From IMG/VR virus record IMGVR_UViG_3300025697_002467: 50,006 nucleotides of DNA; one strand, 5' to 3'. Under the pieces are notes generated by a model. That model was given only the letters and a program-made list of their open reading frames with translations, ran no database searches and had not been told where the DNA came from. Shown piece after piece: positions 23,658-45,360 of the stretch. Positions within the stretch are counted from its first letter, which is position 1. The number at the start of each line of letters is the position of its first letter. The DNA is from a virus (lineage: Duplodnaviria > Heunggongvirae > Uroviricota > Caudoviricetes). A program made the position numbers and the translations under genes.

Positions 23658-23697
23658 TTCTTACTTCAACAACCCACAAGAAATGAAAACTAAGCCA
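23658..23697 (-). promoter_or_regulatory. repeated motif, copy M10 (left member of divergent pair)
   Basis: TGGCTTAGTTT-TCATTTC-TTGTGGGTTGTTG-AAGTAAGAA. Confidence 0.85.
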
Positions 23698-23708
23698 AAT
23701 CTGTTTCA

Positions 23709-23750
23709 CGGCTTAGTTTCAAGAAATTCTGGGTTGTTGGGGTATAAGAG
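23709..23750 (+). promoter_or_regulatory. repeated motif, copy P1 (right member of divergent pair)
   Basis: CGGCTTAGTTT-CAAGAAA-TTCTGGGTTGTTG-GGGTATAAGAG. Confidence 0.8.
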
Positions 23751-30553: not shown

Positions 30554-30831
30554 ACGATAAAGACCTTGAAAATTTATGTTCAATCGAGCCGACTCAACCA
30601 TGTCCTGACTGTGGGCAAATTGCCCTTGCTACATGGGTAGACATTGGTTTTGGACCATACTCTCAGCAGGCTGGTCCTTATTCCTGTACTGAATGTGATT
30701 GGGTAGAGCCTTGTCCTTATGTGAGTCCTGAAAAATGTGATCGGTGTGTGAGTTTTGACACCTGTTACACTCGTTTGGAGAAAAAATATGTGAGTTTTGA
30801 CACCTGTTACACTCGTTTGGAGAAAAAATAA
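30550..30831 (+). CDS. zinc-ribbon protein
   Basis: CPDC..VDIGFG....GPYSCTECDW. Confidence 0.75.
   Translation: MNDKDLENLCSIEPTQPCPDCGQIALATWVDIGFGPYSQQAGPYSCTECDWVEPCPYVSPEKCDRCVSFDTCYTRLEKKYVSFDTCYTRLEKK
30747..30830. repeat. exact 42-bp tandem duplication at gene 3' end
   Basis: TGTGAGTTTTGACACCTGTTACACTCGTTTGGAGAAAAAATA x2. Confidence 0.95.
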
Positions 30832-34050: not shown

Positions 34051-34395
34051 ATGAGTTATTATGTATTGGATAGCAACCTGAAACTGAAGTTTGTGAGAAA
34101 TCTGTCTGTCGGATGGTTACAGCATTTGGTTAGGTTTGGATTTACTGTACAGCATTTGTCAGACAGTACCATAAATATCCTAAAAAACCCCTGTGATCAC
34201 AACGAGATTGGTGGATGCTCCAGTCACATAAATGCTTTGGAAGCAGTCCAAGAATATATAGTACCAGGTTCAAAAATTACCGTAGTTTACCCAGAAAATG
34301 ACTGGACTGTCGTTCGTACCATTTTTGAGAAAAAGGGTAAAAAAGAAATTATCGGCCATATGAAACCTGTATGGAAAACTAAGGAGACAGCATGA
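34051..34395 (+). CDS. hypothetical protein
   Basis: AGGAGG RBS; 114 aa. Confidence 0.65.
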   Translation: MSYYVLDSNLKLKFVRNLSVGWLQHLVRFGFTVQHLSDSTINILKNPCDHNEIGGCSSHINALEAVQEYIVPGSKITVVYPENDWTVVRTIFEKKGKKEIIGHMKPVWKTKETA

Positions 34396-34973
34396 AACTG
34401 AAAGACCGCCTGTTGGCATTCGTTGACGTTGAAACGACTGGGTTAGACCCAGAAAAACACGAGATGATCGAGTTTGCCTGTAAAACTTCTGACGGCAAGA
34501 AAATCCAGTTCAAGATCAAGCCTCAACACATCGAAACAGCTCACCCAAGAGCCTTGGAAGTGAACGGATACACCCCAGAACGATGGAAAGATGCCATAGA
34601 GCCTAAACAGGCTGCTGCCATTATCCAAGAGTGGTTGGAAGAGGTTATCATCATCGGTCAAAGCATTAAATTTGATGTGGGTTTTATCAAAGCCTTGTTG
34701 AAACGGGAAGGTGTTGAATATGATAACAATTTCCTGAGATATTCTGGAGACACTGTTACCTTGGCACTGGCACATTTAGTCCCCAAAGGACTCACGAACC
34801 TATCACTGAAATCTATCATGCAATTCCTTAATATGGAACCTGAGCCTGATGTCCATGAGGCTATGAATGGAGTGGACTGCTGCAAAGCTGTATGGGAAAA
34901 GTTAACAGATACAGGCTTCGATGCTTCCAAGTTCCACAAACATTACTCCGGCCCGGAGTACGATAAAGAGTAA
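34392..34973 (+). CDS. DEDDh 3'-5' exonuclease (DnaQ/RNase T-like)
   Basis: ExoI DVETTGLDP..HEMIEFA; ExoII FDVGFI; ExoIII HEAMNGV (H.A..D variant). Confidence 0.85.
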   Translation: MKLKDRLLAFVDVETTGLDPEKHEMIEFACKTSDGKKIQFKIKPQHIETAHPRALEVNGYTPERWKDAIEPKQAAAIIQEWLEEVIIIGQSIKFDVGFIKALLKREGVEYDNNFLRYSGDTVTLALAHLVPKGLTNLSLKSIMQFLNMEPEPDVHEAMNGVDCCKAVWEKLTDTGFDASKFHKHYSGPEYDKE

Positions 34974-34982
34974 ACAGCTCTT

Positions 34983-35022
34983 TGGCTTAGTTTTCGTTTC
35001 CCGTGGGTTGTTGATGTAAGAA
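34983..35022 (+). promoter_or_regulatory. repeated motif, copy P6, upstream of cas operon
   Basis: TGGCTTAGTTT-TCGTTTC-CCGTGGGTTGTTG-ATGTAAGAA. Confidence 0.8.
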
Positions 35023-35077
35023 TGATGGTCTTAACTATACGGAGACAAATATTACTCTTAGAGTAATATAAAAAATA

Positions 35078-37885
35078 ATGGATAAATATCTTCAACTCAC
35101 TCAAAACATTGCAGTTTTGTCTGGTCTGTTTCATGACTGGATTAAAGCCTCGGAGTTTTTTATAACAAAACTCCGAAAAAACGAAATTGTCCAAGACCCT
35201 CTAAGACATGATTGGCTATCTGCCGTGTTTTTTTCTTCTATAGTTGGGAAACAATCCGACCTTGAATGGCTTCAACAACTTATTGATGGGAATATCCCAT
35301 CAGAATTTAAAATACCTGACAACCCATTAGAAAATCTCCCAGACACAGCTGCCGTTATATTTTGGTTAATTTTAACGCATCACAGATTACCGATAATTGA
35401 TCGATATAGAGGAAAAAACTGTGGGGATTTTCGGAATCTTTTTAAGTTTATTTCGGCTGAGTGGGGATACCAACATCTTAAAACCCAAGGCTTAGAGAAA
35501 TGTTTTAAATTCCCTAAAGGATTACCAGACCATTCCCCTATTTTAGTACAACACATCCAGAAAGCAGCTCAGGATTTATATAATTCTATAGGTACGCTGG
35601 AGGAAGTAATCCAAAAAAGAAATCTTCGTACAATCCTGACTCAAGCTCGTATGGCTCTCATGTTAGCGGATCATTTCCATTCGTCCCAAGATGCTGACCC
35701 AAACTGGCCGAAGACATATCCTGTTTTTGCTAATACGTACCGAGACACTGGTAAATTAAAGCAACGGCTTGATGAACACCTTGTCGGAGTAGCTAATCAG
35801 GCAGCCTTCAATGTGAAATTTCTGCATGAGCTTGTGGACATTAATCACAAACACCAAGCCTACCCGTCACTCGTTATTAAAAGCCCCGCTGAATTTCAAT
35901 GGCAAGAAGATGCTGTCACAGTTATCCGAAACCAGTATCAAAAAGGAGGCTTTTTTGGGGTCAGTATTGCCAGTACAGGAACAGGTAAAACATTAGGTAA
36001 TGCTAAAATTATGCAAGCTCTATCGAAAGACGGGAAAGGACTTCATTATACATCAGCCCTTGGACTCCGAACCTTAACCCTACAAACTGGATTGGAATAC
36101 CGTGACCGGATTGGATTAACGGATAAAGATATGGCCGTTCTGATTGGTTCTACTGACAACCTGAATCCATTCTATGCAGGTTCAGAATCTGAAGACTGTT
36201 TATTAGATAATGAATTGATTGGGGGCTTGGCAGAAGCAGGGTTATCCCCAGTATTACGAGATGAAAAGAGCTGTCGGTTTTTCCACACTCCTGTGGTGGT
36301 TTGTACTATTGACCATCTAGTTGGGGCTACGGAAACTAGAAAGGGTGGCCGGTATATCCTACCTCTCCTTCGATTGATGTCTTCTGACCTAGTTATTGAT
36401 GAAATAGATAATTTCTCAAATGGAGACTCCGTTGTTATTGGCCATTTAATCCATCTTGCTGGGATGTTAGGAAGAAAAGTCCTCATTTCCTCAGCCACAA
36501 TTCCTCCTGATATGGCAGAAGGGTATTTTAATGCTTATCAGGCCGGTTGGGAAGAATTTTGTAAAAACCAATCTGAAAACCCTGCTGTTAGTTGTTTCTG
36601 GACAGATGAGTTTGGAGCAACACTTGAATCTGTGGAGACCCTGACTGAGTATCGGAAATACCATCAAGAATTTGTTGAACAGCGTGTCATAGAATTAGCT
36701 AAGAAACCAATCAGACACCGAGTTAATATAGGGGAAATCCAACCTGTTAAAAATGAAAGCCGTAAAAAAACAAAAAACAGATTTTTTAAATCCATGACAG
36801 ATTGTTGTTTCGAATTACACAAGGACAATTACACTAAAGATGCCAAAACAGGTAAATTAGTGAGTATTGGTGTTATCAGAGTCAATACTATAAATACTTG
36901 TGTATCACTTACAAAACATCTCTTGAAAACCAAACTTCCACCTAATATCGATATCCGAACAATGGCCTACCACAGCCAACAAGTTATGGCCTTGCGTAAT
37001 GTTCAGGAGACTCATTTAGATAACGTGTTGAAAAGACACAAAGGTTCTCAAGCAATTTTTGATAACCCCATCATTAGAGAGCATGTAGATAATAGCTCGG
37101 CTGATCATGTGATATTTATTCTTGTAGCTACTTCAATCGAAGAAGTTGGTAGAGATCATGATTTTGATTGGGGTGTAATCGAACCATCCTCATTTCGGGC
37201 AATTATTCAGCTAATAGGACGTATATTACGACATAGGATGAAAAATGTTACACAACCTAATGTAACGATTATGCAGTATAACTTAAAAGGCTTGCTTGGA
37301 GACCGACTCCCTTTCAAACTCCCAGGCTATGAATCTACTCAGCATGTTTTCAATTCTCATGATATTACTAACCTCATTGATAAGGAGACTATCTGTGAAG
37401 GTTTGAATGCTACACCAAGAATTACCAAGAACACCCCCTTAGACCCCCAAAACAAGCTGGTAGACCTCGAACACACAATCACTCATGAAACCCTATCTGA
37501 TTACACCCAACAAGGGCCAGAGAGTCTTGCAGGCTGGGTTAAGACGTTTTGGTGGATGACTGCCACACCTCAAAAAATGAATAAGTTTCGGTCAGATTAT
37601 CCCTGCCTTCGAGTCTTCTTGATCCCCACGGATGATGGTCCTGTTTTTTTTGAAAAAACAAAAAGACATGGGATTCGAAAAATCGAATCCTTGTATGGAG
37701 TTAGGGTAAACAAGTCTGATGATGAAATGCCTTTGAAAAGATTATGGCTTCATAGAGATTTTGAAACTATTATTGATGGTTTGGACCTTATGATACACGG
37801 AGAAATCAACCTACCAACGTATGGTAAGGATAAAAATGAAATTCGTTATGAGTATTCTGACCAGTTTGGGTTAATTGCAAAATAG
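35078..37885 (+). CDS. cas3: type I-F Cas3 nuclease-helicase lacking the N-terminal Cas2 domain
   Basis: starts at the HD domain (GLFHDWIKAS, DPLRHDW, MLADH); Walker A ASTGTGKT; LGLRTLTLQTG; LVIDEID; SSAT; YHSQ; EVGRDHDFDW; QLIGRILRHR. Confidence 0.95.
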   Translation: MDKYLQLTQNIAVLSGLFHDWIKASEFFITKLRKNEIVQDPLRHDWLSAVFFSSIVGKQSDLEWLQQLIDGNIPSEFKIPDNPLENLPDTAAVIFWLILTHHRLPIIDRYRGKNCGDFRNLFKFISAEWGYQHLKTQGLEKCFKFPKGLPDHSPILVQHIQKAAQDLYNSIGTLEEVIQKRNLRTILTQARMALMLADHFHSSQDADPNWPKTYPVFANTYRDTGKLKQRLDEHLVGVANQAAFNVKFLHELVDINHKHQAYPSLVIKSPAEFQWQEDAVTVIRNQYQKGGFFGVSIASTGTGKTLGNAKIMQALSKDGKGLHYTSALGLRTLTLQTGLEYRDRIGLTDKDMAVLIGSTDNLNPFYAGSESEDCLLDNELIGGLAEAGLSPVLRDEKSCRFFHTPVVVCTIDHLVGATETRKGGRYILPLLRLMSSDLVIDEIDNFSNGDSVVIGHLIHLAGMLGRKVLISSATIPPDMAEGYFNAYQAGWEEFCKNQSENPAVSCFWTDEFGATLESVETLTEYRKYHQEFVEQRVIELAKKPIRHRVNIGEIQPVKNESRKKTKNRFFKSMTDCCFELHKDNYTKDAKTGKLVSIGVIRVNTINTCVSLTKHLLKTKLPPNIDIRTMAYHSQQVMALRNVQETHLDNVLKRHKGSQAIFDNPIIREHVDNSSADHVIFILVATSIEEVGRDHDFDWGVIEPSSFRAIIQLIGRILRHRMKNVTQPNVTIMQYNLKGLLGDRLPFKLPGYESTQHVFNSHDITNLIDKETICEGLNATPRITKNTPLDPQNKLVDLEHTITHETLSDYTQQGPESLAGWVKTFWWMTATPQKMNKFRSDYPCLRVFLIPTDDGPVFFEKTKRHGIRKIESLYGVRVNKSDDEMPLKRLWLHRDFETIIDGLDLMIHGEINLPTYGKDKNEIRYEYSDQFGLIAK

Positions 37886-37898
37886 AAAGGATTTGAAA

Positions 37899-39134
37899 AT
37901 GGATATTGAAATCCAGAAGTTTTTTGATGAACGTATCAAGAAAAAAATTAAGCATGGAAGTCAAAATATACCTGATGAACAGATGCCTGATTTTGAGAAC
38001 AAAATCAGGGAGAATTTTGTTTTGGAAACGTGGTTGCCAATAGCTGCGGAAAAAGCAAAATTCGTTACTCTCCGAACCCACTCAGGGAAAATGACTCACC
38101 CTAGTGCCCGGACATCTTCGTTCGTAGCCAAGAAACCCCAAGAAAATGATGGTTATCTTCGAACAGGGAATGTTTCTGTAGAAACAGATATGTGTGGAGG
38201 TGGGGCAGCCAGCCTAATCTATTATGCCTTCATGAACCTCAAGCTGACTGATGGGCAAACCATTTTAAGCCACCTACAAAAGTCTACTGACTATATCAAA
38301 CAGCAATTCGATATCCCTACAATGTCGTTCGATGACATCCAAAAAGGTTTTCTGGCTGTTTTTGATGAAACAGATGAAGACATTTATACTGATGGTTTAC
38401 TCCGAGAAGTATTTTTCCCAGTTGACGATGGTTATCATCTTCTGTCCATTACGAGCCCTTCTGGGATCATTTTTGCCCAAACTGACAAAATTGATAAAAT
38501 CCGTTTCTCAGAAGAAACTAAAGAAATCCGAAAACTTAAACGGCAGGGAAAACCGTCAGATAAAGGTTTTACCGAATTTTTTGACCTGACCATTGCCAAC
38601 TATGGAGGTTCTCAACCTCAGAACATCGGAGCTCTCAACAGCAAGTACAAAAAAGTATACTTGTTATCAGCTTCCCCACCTCAGTTTAAAAAACGGAAAA
38701 CCAAGCTACCCAAAACGAACTTTATGTCTATTCTGTGGGTAAAAGGCTTTCAGAGGTCTTTCCAGAAATTTCATACTCAGATAGCTATTAAAAAACAAAA
38801 CCAACATAGCCGTCTCCGACGTGATAACCATATTCGGTTCATTGTGGACCAAATCTCTAAACAGATGTGGGCAGTTCGACAGACTGAGCCTGGATGGTCT
38901 AATTCAGATACCTATAGATCATTGCCCAGACATCAAAAAATCTGGTTGGATCAACAGTATGCTGGCAACCGCTATGACAATCCCGATTGGATGGGCAAAG
39001 TAATTGCTGATATTAGCAGATGGTTCATCAACTCTTATAACACCCTGCTCGGTTCTGATGCAGAGTTGCTTGACGATACTGATTTGAGACATGTGGAAAC
39101 TATCATTCAAGAATGTGAGGAGGCCATCCGATGA
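37899..39134 (+). CDS. csy1: type I-F Cascade large subunit Csy1/Cas8f
   Basis: THSGKMTHPSA, GYLRTGNV, FFPVDDGYHLLS, NYGGSQPQNIGALNS, WSNS...LP.HQKIWLD; start re-called at MDIEIQ. Confidence 0.93.
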   Translation: MDIEIQKFFDERIKKKIKHGSQNIPDEQMPDFENKIRENFVLETWLPIAAEKAKFVTLRTHSGKMTHPSARTSSFVAKKPQENDGYLRTGNVSVETDMCGGGAASLIYYAFMNLKLTDGQTILSHLQKSTDYIKQQFDIPTMSFDDIQKGFLAVFDETDEDIYTDGLLREVFFPVDDGYHLLSITSPSGIIFAQTDKIDKIRFSEETKEIRKLKRQGKPSDKGFTEFFDLTIANYGGSQPQNIGALNSKYKKVYLLSASPPQFKKRKTKLPKTNFMSILWVKGFQRSFQKFHTQIAIKKQNQHSRLRRDNHIRFIVDQISKQMWAVRQTEPGWSNSDTYRSLPRHQKIWLDQQYAGNRYDNPDWMGKVIADISRWFINSYNTLLGSDAELLDDTDLRHVETIIQECEEAIR

Positions 39135-40024
39135 AAGACATTTTACTGATACCAAAGATACAAGCTGAAAGTGCCAATGCTCATTCCAGTCCATACTCCG
39201 GCGGATTTCCTGCTATGACGGCTTGGATGGGTTTTGCTCATTTGCTTGAAAGAAAACTTCAACAGACTTCTTATGCAGGGATCAAGTTTAAAAGTGTTGG
39301 GGTGGTGAGTCATGATTTTACTTTGAGAAATTTTAAGCACCCCAAGGATTTCTGTTCCGCTATTATTGGCAGACGTTTACCCCCTCAAAACCCTAGTCAA
39401 AAAGGGGCACCTCTGATTCCCGACTTAACCTGTGACCTAACGGTTTCTATAGTGTTGGAATGTTCAGGGATGGGGATGATAGATCATGAAGATTTCACCA
39501 ACACTATTAGGAAAATCATTTATAGTCTTAAATTGGCTAGTGGTGATATTGTAAACCTCCAAAAACCAGAAGTTCTCACCGTCCATGATGAGAAAAGCCA
39601 AAAAACCCTGCTCCGTCGGCTTATGCCAGGTAACTGTCTGATTGAACGTCGGGATCTGATACAGAAAGCTATGGAAAACGGCCAAGATGCCCTTGAAGCT
39701 GTTCTTTCTCATACTTGTATAGAACACTCATATAATGAGGTAACAGATAAGTGGGAAAGTAAACGGAAAACATCAGGTTGGCTGGTTCCAATTACTACAG
39801 GTTATCAAGGACTCACTAAATTGGGTCCTGCTGAAAACACACGAGATGCAAACGATACCCCACACCGATTTGCTGAAGCTATTGTAACATTATGTGAATT
39901 TATCATGCCATATAAAATTGTCGAACTTGATAACATGCTATGGCACTATCATTCTGATATGAACAAAGACCTTTATCTTTGTCAACAGAATAAACCTACA
40001 TACTCAGGAGAAAACTATGTCTAA
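39131..40024 (+). CDS. csy2: type I-F Csy2/Cas5f
   Basis: IQAESANA.SSPYS.GFPAMTAWMGFAH.LERKL; GWLVPITTGYQGL; HRFAE; L..MLWHY. Confidence 0.95.
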   Translation: MKDILLIPKIQAESANAHSSPYSGGFPAMTAWMGFAHLLERKLQQTSYAGIKFKSVGVVSHDFTLRNFKHPKDFCSAIIGRRLPPQNPSQKGAPLIPDLTCDLTVSIVLECSGMGMIDHEDFTNTIRKIIYSLKLASGDIVNLQKPEVLTVHDEKSQKTLLRRLMPGNCLIERRDLIQKAMENGQDALEAVLSHTCIEHSYNEVTDKWESKRKTSGWLVPITTGYQGLTKLGPAENTRDANDTPHRFAEAIVTLCEFIMPYKIVELDNMLWHYHSDMNKDLYLCQQNKPTYSGENYV

Positions 40025-41048
40025 AGTCAAAATCCCCGGGAATTTGTCATTCCGCAAGCGTTTAGAACCCTCAAAAGGAATCCTTTTTGGAACTTCCTGG
40101 GACAAACGCCGAGAAATTTGTGTCCCTTTAACCAATGAACTTATCACTGTCAGAGGTGGTAAAACTCACCACCAAAATTTCCCTGACAATCGTGAGAAAG
40201 GTGAGTCTGAGTTGGGTGATGCCAACATCCACACTCTTGATTCCTGTTTGTTGTCCAAGGATCACGATACCGTGCGTTTAACTTACACCTTGAAAGTTCT
40301 CAACGGTGTTGCCGGTATGGAAAGCTGTAATGACAAAGAATTCCTTAACCTGTTCGAGGAATGCTTAAAAGAAAAACTGGATACTGTTGGAGTGAAAGTT
40401 CTGGCCCATCGTTATGCCACCAACATTGCCAATGGTCGTCCTTTGTGGAAAAACCGTGAAGCTACCCATATTGAAACGGTCGTTCGTTGCCGTGGCAGTG
40501 AGACAGAGTGGGTTTTTGACGGTAAAGAAATCCCATTGCATACTTTCGATTATGAAAGTTCTGCATTGACAGGGCTAACTCAAGTCATTGAAGATGCTTT
40601 GTTAGGTAACACTGACCTTATCATTCTGGAAGTGTCCTCATACGCTTTGGTCGGTCAAGGTCAGCCGGTATTCCCCAGTCAAGAATTCATTCAGGATCAA
40701 GGGAATGGTTTCAGCTCGAAGAAAGACGGGAAGAAAAGCAAAGTTTTATACTTCCCCGAAGATGTAGCCGGCCTGCACCCGCAAAAAATCGGTAATGCCA
40801 TCCGTACTATTGATTCATGGTATGGAGACGGTGTCTCTCCGATTGCTGTGGAACCTTACGGTGCCCAGCCTACTTTCAATACCCATCACCGTAGCCCTTA
40901 CGAACAAAAGGACTTTTATTCCATGTTGGTGAAATTTGTGAACAAGGAAGAATTGACCGAATCCGAAGTTCATTACTTCATGGCCATGCTGGTCAAAGGT
41001 GGTGTGTTTGGTGCAGCCAAATCCAAGCCTAAACCCAAATCCAAGTAG
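40017..41048 (+). CDS. csy3: type I-F Csy3/Cas7f
   Basis: LSF.KRL.PS; RYATNIANGRPLWKNR; VFPSQEF; KSKVLY; HPQKIGNAIRTIDSWY; IAVEPYG; MAMLVKGGVFG. Confidence 0.97.
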   Translation: MSKVKIPGNLSFRKRLEPSKGILFGTSWDKRREICVPLTNELITVRGGKTHHQNFPDNREKGESELGDANIHTLDSCLLSKDHDTVRLTYTLKVLNGVAGMESCNDKEFLNLFEECLKEKLDTVGVKVLAHRYATNIANGRPLWKNREATHIETVVRCRGSETEWVFDGKEIPLHTFDYESSALTGLTQVIEDALLGNTDLIILEVSSYALVGQGQPVFPSQEFIQDQGNGFSSKKDGKKSKVLYFPEDVAGLHPQKIGNAIRTIDSWYGDGVSPIAVEPYGAQPTFNTHHRSPYEQKDFYSMLVKFVNKEELTESEVHYFMAMLVKGGVFGAAKSKPKPKSK

Positions 41049-41060
41049 GAGAAAAAGAAC

Positions 41061-41630
41061 ATGAAATACTACCAAGAAATTACGTTGATCCCTGACCCTG
41101 TTGGGATGCCCCTGAGTTATTTACAGCAACGTCTGTTCTATCAGGTTCATGCAGCCTTGGCTCGTGAACCTGGGGATAATTCCGTGGGTATATCTTTCCC
41201 TGATTACGATGGGGAAGGATGCCAACTGGGAAATAAAATAAGGTTGTTAGCTCCGACTGAGGATATTTTAAAAAACCTTCAACTTCGACACCTACTTCTC
41301 AGGTTAAGTGATTATTCTCATTTGTCAGATATCCGACAGGTGCCTGAGAAAATTGAAAGCTATGCTTTTTTTCGTCGGGTTCAACCGAAAACCAGCCTTG
41401 GCAGCATAGCTCGTCGAAAAGCTAGACGTGAAGGGATTACAGTTGATGAAGCCTTGAATCTTTTAGGACCACCTAAAAAAACACCCAAACTCCCCGCTGT
41501 TTCAATGGAGAGTAAAAGTTCAGGTCAACAATATCCTTTGTTTGTTTCCCGAGTTTTATCTGATGAGCCAGCTACGGGGTCATACAGTACGTATGGATTG
41601 AGTTCCACAGGTACTGTACCTTTATTTTAA
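41061..41630 (+). CDS. cas6f: type I-F Cas6f/Csy4 crRNA endoribonuclease
   Basis: MKYYQEITL.PD; QVH.AL; GISFPDY; LG.KIRL; RRVQPK; S.SSGQ.YPLF; YSTYGLS..TVPLF. Confidence 0.95.
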   Translation: MKYYQEITLIPDPVGMPLSYLQQRLFYQVHAALAREPGDNSVGISFPDYDGEGCQLGNKIRLLAPTEDILKNLQLRHLLLRLSDYSHLSDIRQVPEKIESYAFFRRVQPKTSLGSIARRKARREGITVDEALNLLGPPKKTPKLPAVSMESKSSGQQYPLFVSRVLSDEPATGSYSTYGLSSTGTVPLF

Positions 41631-41748
41631 TCAAAACAAAAAACCTAAGTGGTTATGGCTACTTAGGTTTTTTGCTTTTAACATTGGTAAAAACATGTAA
41701 TCATGTATAGGTCTTTGAAAACTCAATAGTTTTATGATTTATGCTCCT
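41631..41748 (+). promoter_or_regulatory. CRISPR leader
   Basis: AT-rich 118 bp between cas6f and first repeat; IHF-like CTTTGAAAACTCAATAGTTTTA at 41713-41734. Confidence 0.8.
41637..41674 (+). terminator. 14-bp perfect inverted repeat in the leader (cas-operon terminator or leader motif)
   Basis: CAAAAAACCTAAGT-ggttatggct-ACTTAGGTTTTTTG. Confidence 0.7.
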
Positions 41749-43680
41749 GTGAACTGCCGAGTAGGCAGCTTAGAATAACAGTTTGTACCGGTATTGTTTG
41801 GCAGATGTGTGAACTGCCGAGTAGGCAGCTTAGAATCTGCTCTGGAAATTTTGAGTATCCATACTGCCGTGAACTGCCGAGTAGGCAGCTTAGAATTGTT
41901 TGATTTTCTGACTCATTCCACCGAACGGGTGAACTGCCGAGTAGGCAGCTTAGAATTGTTTTGTCGAACCGACATTGATTTTTGAAAAGTGAACTGCCGA
42001 GTAGGCAGCTTAGAATTGGAGGTCAGAAAGGAAACGGTAACTATGTCTAGTTAACTGCCGAGTAGGCAGCTTAGAATTCAGACAATAATTCAAGAAAGTA
42101 TCAATTAAAGTGAACTGCCGAGTAGGCAGCTTAGAATTGGAAAACCATAGAATCAGAGAAGCTGGATTCGTGAACTGCCGAGTAGGCAGCTTAGAATACA
42201 TGTGTCGTAACCGTGTTCACGAAAAATTCGTGAACTGCCGAATAGGCAGCTTAGAATGGGTAACGATGACGTTGGAAAATGTAGACAGAGGTACACTGCC
42301 GAACAGGCAGCTTAGAATGACAGGTCGCATCGTGAATTTCTGGATCTGAAGTTAACTGCCGAGTAGGCAGCTTAGAATATTGATATTGATGCTAATAACG
42401 GCAGTGATGAGTGAACTGCTGAATAAGCAGCTTAGAATACAAGTCACAATATTGGATTAGCAAGCACATAGTTAACTGCCGAATAGGTAGTTTAGAATTT
42501 GCTTTTTTGTGACTGTACCTAGAACCTGTGGTTAACTGCCGAGTAGGCAGCTTAGAATCGAAGAACACGTCGGATCTCCCTGAAAATATCGTGAACTGCC
42601 GAACAGGCAGCTTAGAATAGTTCATCACACAAGGCCATTAGCTCGTCCACCGTTAACTGCTGAACAGGTAGTTTAGAATACAGGGAATCTGCGGACTTTG
42701 CCAACCTTGATGTAAACTGCCGAATAGGCAGCTTAGAATTGGTCAACCGAACTACACAAAATGTCTTTTGCATGAACTGCCGAGTAGGTAGTTTAGAATT
42801 GTCCTGAAATGCCTGTTGTCACAAATGAGATGTTAACTGCCGAATAGGCAGTTTAGAATTATGTGGGATCAAAGCTCTCCCAAGGGTGGGTGTTAACTGC
42901 CGAGCAGGCAGCTTAGAATCATGTATAAGTTGCTCTCAATCCACAATTTAGGTGAACTGCTGGATAAGTAGTTTAGAATAATTTAATCAGGTCATTCATA
43001 ACGGCCATTTTAGTTAACTGCCGAATAGGCAGCTTAGAATTCTTGTTGGATGCAAGTGTCTTATCAACATTTGTTAACTGCCGAATAGGCAGCTTAGAAT
43101 TGAGACAGATCCCAAAGCTGAAATCGAATCCAGTGAACTGCCGAACAGGCAGCTTAGAATAAGGAACAGAAGCAGCTAGTTCAATTGGTACTGTTAACTG
43201 CCGAACAGACAGCTTAGAATGAAATTCCTTCATCCACATATTCGGCAACTATGTGAACTGCCGAACAGGTAGTTTAGAATTTTATGGAACTCACTACGAC
43301 CGCCAGACCGGATCGTGAGCTGCCGAATAGGTAGTTTAGAATCTATTGACACCAAAGCAGATTGAATCCGCGGGAACTGCCGAATAGGCAGCTTAGAATG
43401 ATGAAACTCTATGACGAGGAACGAGTGGAGGGTGAACTGCTGAATAAGCAGCTTAGAATACAATCGAATCAATGCCGTCTAAAAGCTCCGCAGGAACTGC
43501 TGGATAAGCAGCTTAGAGTTCGTATGGAGTAACCGTGAAAAACTGCCGGACAGGTAGTTTAGAATTTAGAAATAAGGGTGTGGCATTGAAGCCGAGTGAA
43601 AACTGCCGAATAGGCAGCTTAGAATAAGCACATCAGCTATGTTAAACCGCACTGCGTGAACTGCTGAATAAGTAGCTTAG
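41749..43680 (+). CRISPR. type I-F CRISPR array, 33 repeats / 32 spacers
   Basis: 28-bp consensus GTGAACTGCCGAGTAGGCAGCTTAGAAT (CTGCC/GGCAG stem); spacers mostly 32 bp (range about 18-34); uniform at leader end, heterogeneous distally; last repeat truncated at GCTTAG. Confidence 0.99.
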
Positions 43681-43717
43681 CTTAGTTTCCAAAAGTTGTG
43701 GGTTGTTGGGGTAGAAG
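43680..43717 (+). promoter_or_regulatory. repeated motif, copy P7, fused to the last CRISPR repeat
   Basis: GCTTAGTTT-CCAAAAG-TTGTGGGTTGTTG-GGGTAGAA. Confidence 0.85.
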
Positions 43718-43751: not shown

Positions 43752-45299
43752 ATGGCCAAAACAATCATTGATAGTGTTACTTTAAATTTTACTGACCTTA
43801 CCGGTGCCAAGACAGGCTGTACCAAACTCGGTTCCAACAAATTCTGGAAGGGCTGGGTTGAAGACCTTGGAGACGGCACAGGCAATTTCGAGTGTTGCTG
43901 GGGTGCTACAGGCACACCAGGTAAAGACACCGGAAGCAAACGAGGTATTGACCTTGATGATGCCCAAACCTTGCTCAATAAGAAAGTTAAATCAAAAGTA
44001 AAAAAAGGTTATACCCTCCTTGAAGTTCGTTCCGATGAGGAAGAGGTGGCCAAGGCTGCTGACAACGGTGTAAACCTCACTGCTGACAAGAAAGCCCCCA
44101 AAAAGAAAAAAGCTGTCAAGAAATCAACTTTCAATCCTGCTATCGGAAACTTGCTGGCTACCATCTATAATGAAACCAGCCGTGTTGTCACAGCAGGTCT
44201 TTCCTCTCAGGCTGGCTCATCTGCTGATAACCCTATAGGTAACCTGTCTGATGCCCAGTTAGACGTAGGTGGTGGCATTTTGGACGATATAGAGGCATTC
44301 CTGACACAGGAACTTGGCCATGAAGACACAGCTAACCGTGTTCAAACCTTGGCTTTGTCTGCTGATGGTGTACCTTCTGATGGTGTCATTGATTTGACTA
44401 ATCAGTACATGTCGAATGTTCCGAGAGAAATTGACCGTTCACAAAGAGGTAGAGGCAACCTGCATCGTCTGGTTATTTCATCCTTTGAACGCTTGGAAGA
44501 GCAACGAAAGTTTTTACAGTTGCTTCGTGATGCTCACCTGACCAAAGGTGTCTTTAAAGCTGCTGCTAATGCTTCTACAGGTGGTAAAGAACAGATTTGG
44601 TATGAAGGCCTCAATTGCCTTATCGAATTGTGTGAGTCTGGATCAGCCGAATTCAAGAAAGTGTCAGACATATTCAACAACAACCAATCTCGTAAAAACC
44701 AGAACTGGTTCAGTGGTGGACGTTCTACTCTCCGCTTGAAACGGATTTTCAAGTTCACTCGTAATGGTACAGACAAACAGTTTGCCAAGTATGCTAAAGA
44801 GATGGCTTCCAAGCCCAATGCAGTCGGCAATATTTTTGCTTGGCACGGCACACGTACTGAGAACCTTCTCGGTATCAGTAAAACTGGCCTCTTGATGCCT
44901 GAAAACTTGCCTCGTGGTATCCACGTATCAGGTAAAGCTTTCGGCAAAGGGATTTATCACGCCCCTGATATTTCAAAAATAAGAACCATTCACGGTGTGC
45001 AAACAGATGGTACGAATGGAGCTTTGAAGTCTATGAACTATACCTCTTCAAGGGGAGCTTATTACGGTTCAAATAACACTTCAAATTCGGCCTTCATGTA
45101 CCTGCAGGAAGTTGCTTTAGGTAACGGTGATGTTCATACAGCCCCTTGCTGGGACAAACACCGTCCGAATAACTACCCGAAGAACGATTTCATTTATGCA
45201 GCAGCCGGCGGTTGTAGCACGTTATCCCATGATGAATTGGTAACTTTTTCTCAGGATGCTCAAATATTCCGCTATTTGCTTGAGATTGAAGCAAGATAA
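43752..45299 (+). CDS. WGR + PARP-regulatory + PARP catalytic domain ADP-ribosyltransferase
   Basis: WGR: SNKFW...WGATG; PARP_reg: IGNLSDAQL..G..IL...LTNQYMSNVP; catalytic H-Y-E: AWHGTR, GKAFGKGIY, KSMNY, EVALG, HDELVTF..Q..RYL. Confidence 0.92.
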   Translation: MAKTIIDSVTLNFTDLTGAKTGCTKLGSNKFWKGWVEDLGDGTGNFECCWGATGTPGKDTGSKRGIDLDDAQTLLNKKVKSKVKKGYTLLEVRSDEEEVAKAADNGVNLTADKKAPKKKKAVKKSTFNPAIGNLLATIYNETSRVVTAGLSSQAGSSADNPIGNLSDAQLDVGGGILDDIEAFLTQELGHEDTANRVQTLALSADGVPSDGVIDLTNQYMSNVPREIDRSQRGRGNLHRLVISSFERLEEQRKFLQLLRDAHLTKGVFKAAANASTGGKEQIWYEGLNCLIELCESGSAEFKKVSDIFNNNQSRKNQNWFSGGRSTLRLKRIFKFTRNGTDKQFAKYAKEMASKPNAVGNIFAWHGTRTENLLGISKTGLLMPENLPRGIHVSGKAFGKGIYHAPDISKIRTIHGVQTDGTNGALKSMNYTSSRGAYYGSNNTSNSAFMYLQEVALGNGDVHTAPCWDKHRPNNYPKNDFIYAAAGGCSTLSHDELVTFSQDAQIFRYLLEIEAR

Positions 45300-45330: not shown

Positions 45331-45360
45331 TCCCTGCCTTTACGGGCGGGGGTTTTTTTT
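45331..45360 (+). terminator. intrinsic terminator abutting motif P8
   Basis: CCCTGCCT-TTAC-GGGCGGGG then G and a long T-tract. Confidence 0.85.

Follow-up and report, generated by a model that had tools for sequence, protein, structure and literature searches.

The stretch of DNA analysed here (50,006 nt, henceforth called the window) carries a type I-F CRISPR-Cas locus whose array runs at its far end directly into a promoter-like motif of the phage itself, which raises the question of how the locus came to lie there and whether this junction records its insertion. The initial annotation had proposed that the last repeat is fused to the motif at a shared hexamer (GCTTAG), and that the locus was captured as a cassette by way of microhomology or of the motif copies on either side. 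The window is part of a 402,136-bp contig and is present in salt-lake metagenomes; its genes are short, tightly packed, and arranged in two arms that diverge at 23.7 kb.

The promoter-like motif and the layout of the locus

A bipartite motif (YGGCTTAGTTT, nine variable bases, GTGGGTTGTTG, and a purine-rich tail) occurs in 19 copies in the window, all of them oriented toward genes and most with a ribosome-binding site shortly 3′. Judging by position and conservation, it is probably a phage promoter. Excluding the copy at the array end (P7), an upstream stop codon lies no more than 10 bp from the motif start in 12 of the 18 other copies, with six cases abutting or overlapping. At window positions 1216 and 14918 (minus strand), the upstream open reading frames stop at the TAG within the GCTTAG of the motif (8-bp overlap), and the copy at 45360 is placed on the T-run of a terminator. 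Back-to-back pairs are found at 23658–23748, where gene strand and GC skew switch, as well as at 1000–1024 of L019. In GC-rich distant relatives (L045, L057, L063, L066, L070), a two-box element (GGCTYAG, ~14 bp, GNGTWG) is located upstream of the PARP gene, which suggests that this putative promoter class is conserved clade-wide. A perfect 42-bp tandem duplication was additionally seen at the end of a 93-aa open reading frame (30747–30830).

Two direct motif copies, P6 and P7, bracket the CRISPR-Cas locus and enclose nothing but cas3f, csy1-4, and the array. To this extent the initial annotation was correct; however, consecutive co-oriented copies are spaced 0.2–8.7 kb throughout the window, so that bracketing alone is expected, and P7 was found to start at 43678. 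The features of the locus are as follows (all on the plus strand except for the inverted repeat, to which no strand is assigned):

34392–34973, +, RNase T/DnaQ-type exonuclease gene (PF00929), left anchor of the slot
34983–35021, +, P6, promoter-like motif copy 9 bp past the exonuclease stop (motif scan)
35030–35049, +, apparent PARP-type leader remnant with an orphan GGAGA ribosome-binding site (35041–35045), 32 nt 5′ of the cas3f ATG
35049–35069, perfect 9-bp inverted repeat with a 3-nt loop between the orphan ribosome-binding site and cas3f (sequence, fold)
35078–37885, +, cas3f without N-terminal Cas2 domain (TIGR02562 above cut-off, profile matched from position 115)
37875–41630, +, csy1, csy2, csy3, and cas6f (csy4) (Pfam and NCBIfam)
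41637–41674, +, long A/T-flanked, terminator-like hairpin after cas6f (−23 kcal/mol, z −5.4)
41675–41748, +, CRISPR leader, short, AT-rich, and without a motif copy (sequence, motif scan)
41749–43680, +, type I-F array with 33 repeats and 32 spacers (Rfam RF01317, CRISPR-DR4)
43656–43680, +, terminal repeat 33, positions 1–25 (hairpin 6–20 retained with one G-U pair, final three bases gone)
43678–43717, +, P7, intact motif copy (TAGC variant), putative ancestral promoter of the PARP gene (orthologous copies in relatives)
43752–45299, +, WGR-PARP_reg-PARP gene, right anchor of the slot (orthologues 76–89% identical)

As in canonical type I-F1, genes for Csy1, Csy2, Csy3, and Cas6f are all present, and the array consists of 28-nt CRISPR-DR4 repeats and spacers of ~32 nt. 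The csy1 product scored 157 against TIGR02564, below the cut-off of 169, and far above the Pfam cut-off. The Cas2-Cas3 fusion of canonical I-F1 is absent: no open Cas2 frame precedes cas3f, and the plasmid-borne Cas3f used for comparison has ~107 more N-terminal codons and cas1f upstream. No cas1f was detected between P6 and P7 or among the adjoining genes scanned. Cas3f thus starts at its HD domain, and the adaptation genes were hence cut off at the left end. The best Cas3f matches (~40% identical) stem from gammaproteobacterial plasmids, the Cas3f of phage ICP1 is ~30% identical, and no close relative of Csy3 was found in GTDB genomes or IMG/VR. An integrative element or transposon was considered as the vehicle of the locus and rejected, given that no integrase or transposase is encoded between P6 and P7, where only cas genes and the array lie, and that near-identical end repeats are lacking (P6 and P7 match at 26 of 40 positions).

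P6 is placed to drive cas3f-csy1-4, and if it acts as a promoter, the cas genes would run under the phage's own programme as first proposed. The hairpin after cas6f, which was missed by a simple terminator scan, is likely a bidirectional terminator; its strength suggests that transcription from P6 would reach the cas genes and not the array, in which case the array would need a promoter of its own inside the 74-bp leader. The inverted repeat ahead of cas3f may serve as an operator or form a hairpin that controls translation.

The junction between the array and P7

Repeats are most uniform toward cas6f, so that 43656 marks the trailer end, where the array is degenerate (spacers 27, 30, and 32 are shortened to 29, 18, and 30 bp, respectively). 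Compared with repeats 12 and 29, repeat 33 has 24 matches over its first 25 bases; it ends at position 25 (43680) without the AAT that is present in 31 of the 32 other repeats, and continues directly into CTTAGTTT. This was confirmed as initially annotated. Since array and motif are both repeats that break assembly graphs, the point where the two meet could in principle be an assembly artefact; this is largely refuted and given almost no weight here, as the junction (65 bp) is identical in four further assemblies (L005–L008; JGI and ENA) and is spanned without differences by a Logan contig (43432–43823).

Fusion at a shared GCTTAG did not hold. The hexamer is present twice (43675–43680 and 43680–43685), with only G43680 common to both copies, whereas a single crossover within the hexamer predicts one GCTTAG and a product 5 bp shorter than seen. 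The true overlap between repeat 33 and P7 comprises 3 bp (43678–43680). With two hexamers remaining and P7 intact, the junction is unlikely to be a GCTTAG insertion scar. A shuffled repeat has a 6-mer in common with the motif boxes in 9% of cases; moreover, the Rfam CRISPR-DR4 consensus contains GCUUAG and GCTTAG also occurs in the motif of relatives without type I-F, and the hexamer therefore arose independently in repeat and motif. A scar made in two steps was also weighed, in which repeat and promoter were first joined at GCTTAG, through a crossover or a template switch, before replication slippage duplicated 5 bp. Six base pairs of homology are a better substrate than one to four, a TAGC variant of the promoter exists, and TAGCTTAG has a 5-bp period from which one slippage would yield the exact observed sequence. 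It invokes two events, however, where one suffices; the one-hexamer product would already retain both hairpin and promoter, leaving the duplication unselected; sister arrays lie at the same promoter without the hexamer; and sharing a 6-mer has a chance probability of 0.09. We consider this order of events unlikely.

P7 itself can be traced by orthology. The orthologous motif and leader are found upstream of PARP in all six close relatives (L025, L026, L027, L030, L036, L085), with or without CRISPR, and P7 is by this evidence the PARP gene's own ancestral element, presumably its promoter. It starts with TAGC instead of YGGC, a variant that recurs at L005:9601, far from any CRISPR. In the six relatives an AT-rich tract ending in TT or AT lies upstream of the motif, and in the window the repeat takes its place; the sequence upstream of P7 has an AT fraction of 0.60, compared to 0.65–0.95 at the orthologous copies. 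In the PARP tree, the window groups with L025 and L026 (support 100/99), and the CRISPR-free forms fall outside.

Leader-distal terminal repeats are generally mutated or truncated, with type I-F being the most mutated among all subtypes (PMC12839519). The window array is alike in this respect; what differs is that its erosion halts exactly at a phage promoter core, with the 3-bp overlap described above. The best supported reading, which we regard as probable, is that CRISPR modules are exchanged in the slot and that the array trailer eroded there down to the ancestral promoter. In its favour, motif copies set tight against upstream genes are usual in the window (12 of the 18 others, see above), and the I-G-family array of relatives likewise ends in a truncated repeat. 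An I-F interference module derived from a host would have come to lie upstream of P7, and deletions at the trailer end would then have removed everything between two selected elements, the hairpin of the last repeat and the promoter core. In the final join, TTAG of the repeat may have paired with TTGG of the promoter, with one exact base and imperfect flanks, which would give the tandem hexamer in a single step. Closest relatives are 80–83% identical in DNA, too distant for the pre-insertion bases to be reconstructed. Cas6f cuts at the base of the repeat hairpin and needs this hairpin to finish the last crRNA. In its predicted fold, repeat 33 retains the 5-bp hairpin, and the bases it lost would accordingly have served as handle for a spacer that the array does not have.

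Loss of AAT might instead have been selected, because an extraneous crRNA guided by the promoter sequence, of which the phage's own genome holds many near-copies, would thereby be left with a spoiled 5′ handle. The simple terminator scan found no terminator between array and PARP, the next 32 nt after repeat 33 are motif, and Cas12a arrays are kept from yielding extraneous crRNAs by their mutated terminal repeats (PMC6610086). That effect was shown in Cas12a, though, and not in I-F; an RNA of this kind would be without a 3′ Cas6f hairpin; and neutral erosion explains the loss. The PAM of type I-F is CC, and the matching stretch in the motif copies is preceded by TT instead. Selection of this sort is very unlikely. 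Taken alone, the 62-bp junction is ordinary, a trimmed terminal repeat set against a promoter.

With respect to spacer content, no convincing target was found among the relatives' loci examined or cultured phages, and the exact repeat-spacer-repeat pattern had no match in GTDB. Contigs of runs X3, X9, and X10 carry other spacers between matching repeats (window 42294–43164) and stem either from variants of the strain or from host arrays that use this repeat. In one X9 contig, possibly from a host array, the leader from 41706 onward is preceded by different sequence.

Occupants of the slot in related phages

Across related giant phages, the slot between the exonuclease and PARP genes holds different CRISPR subtypes or none, with some of the links made across contigs. 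Orthologues of the exonuclease lie left of the slot in L019, L027, L030, L082, and L083 (70–85% identical). L019 and L020 are syntenic with the window from the ligase (87%) to the exonuclease (85%), which is followed by 71 bp without a motif and then by csb1, csb2, a mini-array, cas3g, a gene for a Cas3 extension, and a long array, i.e., a type I-G system. The mini-array (L019:13290–13594, ~5 repeats between csb2 and cas3g) has a repeat that differs from that of the main array and shares its AAATTGAAG end; it is possibly regulatory or toxin-antitoxin-like. The same I-G-associated repeat family runs up to the PARP promoter in L025 and L085, and L025 and L038 have one identical spacer and the following degenerate repeat in common, plus a second spacer with two mismatches. 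The I-G cas genes, array, and PARP were linked across separate contigs and never on one. No cas1, cas2, or cas4 was seen from exonuclease to array or from array to PARP in the I-G relatives. In L036 and L041, an array whose repeat we take to resemble type I-E precedes the PARP promoter, on a contig without cas genes. In L083 the exonuclease is fused to an RNA polymerase alpha-CTD-like domain, and the gene for an HD-first Cas3 overlaps this fusion with no motif in between; only a fragment of this Cas3 is present, on a contig without the right anchor, and its best match is 48% identical, no full-length near-identical copy being found. The I-G repeats, the I-E-like repeats, and Cas3g had no match in IMG/VR.

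A single motif copy between exonuclease and PARP, as the initial annotation had envisaged for relatives lacking the locus, was found in the CRISPR-free L030 and L027. The order is exonuclease, alpha-CTD gene, one motif, and PARP in L027 and L029, and exonuclease remnant, ~90 bp, one motif, and PARP in L030. The alpha-CTD-like domain after or fused to the exonuclease was observed at L027:224–640, L082:1135–1311, and L083:637–1398, and is absent in the window and L019. In L030, an inverted gene for an 833-aa HTH and DNA methyltransferase protein (L030:1485–4165) splits the exonuclease region, leaving a 49-aa exonuclease remnant. In the more distant L004 (PARP 66%), the strand opposite to the PARP gene carries, 3.4 kb upstream of it, a type I-C system comprising cas3, cas5c, cas8c, cas7, an array, and a TnpB-family gene (L004:581–8839), and L047 (a 528,282-bp contig) shows the same context.

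One orthologous site in related phages hence carries I-F, I-G, an HD-first Cas3, an I-E-like array, or none, partly by cross-contig linkage, and the I-F locus of the window would be one occupant of a variable exonuclease-PARP slot in a lineage of very large phages. Every array seen in the slot has its degenerate end toward PARP. The last repeat of the I-G-family array is a stub of 7 bp; GCTTAG is lacking in both the I-G and the I-E-like repeats, which end 45–47 bp before the same promoter (47 bp for the I-E-like array). P6 is missing at the orthologous junction of the I-G sister and at that of the HD-first Cas3, and motif brackets are therefore not required. Of the proposed cassette capture, the variable insert stands; capture at this site needs neither motif brackets nor GCTTAG.

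P6 itself looks like a former PARP promoter-leader. The GGAGA site behind it has no start codon within range, and its 20-mer leader matches the PARP leader of L030 at 18 of 20 positions compared to a maximum of 16 among 29 non-PARP leaders, in a test that was made post hoc; by global alignment, the signal is weaker and ranks fifth among non-PARP leaders. The exonuclease tail of the window is also L030-like (YSGPEY is common to both). P6 and P7 are identical at 26 of 40 positions, in the lowest 3% of 171 motif pairs, and a recent duplication of the target, with P6 as a copy of P7, was rejected on these grounds. The two may nonetheless descend from one ancestral module. The I-F module was likely joined behind an old PARP promoter and ribosome-binding site, and PARP would have retained or acquired a second copy, whether because an empty lineage recombined with a filled one or because of an old duplication.

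The arrangement recalls the PeSLs of the T4-type phages RB49 and phi1 (PMC2839356), in which a repeated promoter flanks variable genes and a single copy is left at the empty site. By analogy, a circle with one motif and the I-F module could have recombined into the PARP promoter, so that P6 and P7 would be chimeric direct repeats and the module could leave by crossover between them. The process is demonstrated for the PeSLs of RB49/phi1 (PMC2839356), and the single motif copy at empty sites, the PARP-type leaders at both P6 and P7, and a module that is exactly one inter-motif unit all agree with it. Against it stand the 26/40 identity (longest perfect run ~10 bp, lowest 3% of pairs), the other occupants without a left motif, and the join of repeat to P7, which would be left unexplained and would need an earlier illegitimate event. 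PeSLs, furthermore, are ~100 bp long and sigma70-like with a terminator stem-loop, and their circles were demonstrated (PMC2839356), whereas the window motif is ~40 bp and not sigma70-like; neither a sigma70 match nor a terminator stem-loop was found at P6 or P7, and the other occupants of the slot are not bracketed by the motif. Joints of an empty site or circle between P6 and P7 were absent from the Logan contigs of four runs, in which rare variants are dropped. The sole joint (34981/43680) lies between opposite strands, as expected when the divergent pair of motifs at 23.7 kb maps twice. Such integration is a minor but real possibility.

For trailer erosion in an exchangeable slot, the left side would have formed when the module was joined just behind P6, an older PARP-type promoter with its ribosome-binding site, and cas1 and the Cas2 domain were lost; the cas genes would thereby follow the phage promoter class. 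Modules in the slot would move between sisters via homologous recombination in flanks of 80–83% identity. Between L025 and L085, the 343 bp upstream of PARP show no difference, and within PARP 8 of the first 606 columns differ (99%) followed by 207 of 948 (78%; p 6e-38). A crossover inside PARP has thus moved the array end onto another allele, with the reservation that mosaic contigs can be assembly chimeras. On the left, the exonuclease of P0215 combines the body of the I-G sister with the tail of the window, and a 1382-bp Logan contig (run X9, record 28; window 34392–35013) has the same switch and runs into P6. The exonuclease genes of window and I-G sister have an identical 47-bp run at the switch, because of which that of P0215 is possibly an assembly chimera. 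Together with the PARP mosaic, these observations point to homologous recombination in the anchor genes as the probable route of exchange.

Comparison with known systems and implications

The closest precedent is the anti-defence locus of phage ICP1, where a type I-F CRISPR-Cas system or the nuclease Odn occupies one site (PMC11656645, PMC8263062). Both are phage loci with alternative occupants, one of which is type I-F. ICP1, however, has retained cas1 and Cas2-3, and its alternative to CRISPR is a nuclease of another kind, whereas the occupants seen in the window lineage, putative counter-defence systems, are different type I modules that bring no adaptation genes into the slot. In the parts of the reports consulted, the CRISPR-Cas systems of huge phages (Al-Shayeb 2020, PMC7162821; type I-C of Ace Lake, PMC7416419) resemble the window in having interference genes and an array and no cas1 or cas2, and those parts make no mention of subtypes replacing one another at an orthologous site. 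L004 appears to be the published Ace Lake phage. A literature search of incomplete coverage returned no description of a single phage site at which several type I subtypes take turns. Even in ICP1, the way in which a phage comes by its CRISPR-Cas system is an open question (PMC11656645).

By analogy, spacers would probably be added in trans by the Cas1-Cas2/3 of the host. The wider proposition, to which we assign an even chance, is that the site is a dedicated CRISPR exchange slot, in which type I modules that lack adaptation genes, belonging to three subtypes or more, were captured independently, wired to the phage promoter class or operon, and traded among co-occurring sisters via recombination in the flanks, possibly matching the host's adaptation machinery or the anti-CRISPR landscape. 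L010, L019, and L083 all come from one sample (ERZ27316532). Since filled and empty alleles of one site exist, and different subtypes occur in the same samples, comparative analysis can retrace how modules were captured, shed their adaptation genes, were rewired to phage promoters, and were exchanged, and the lineage allows a test of whether the CRISPR subtype of the phage tracks the Cas1-Cas2 of its host.
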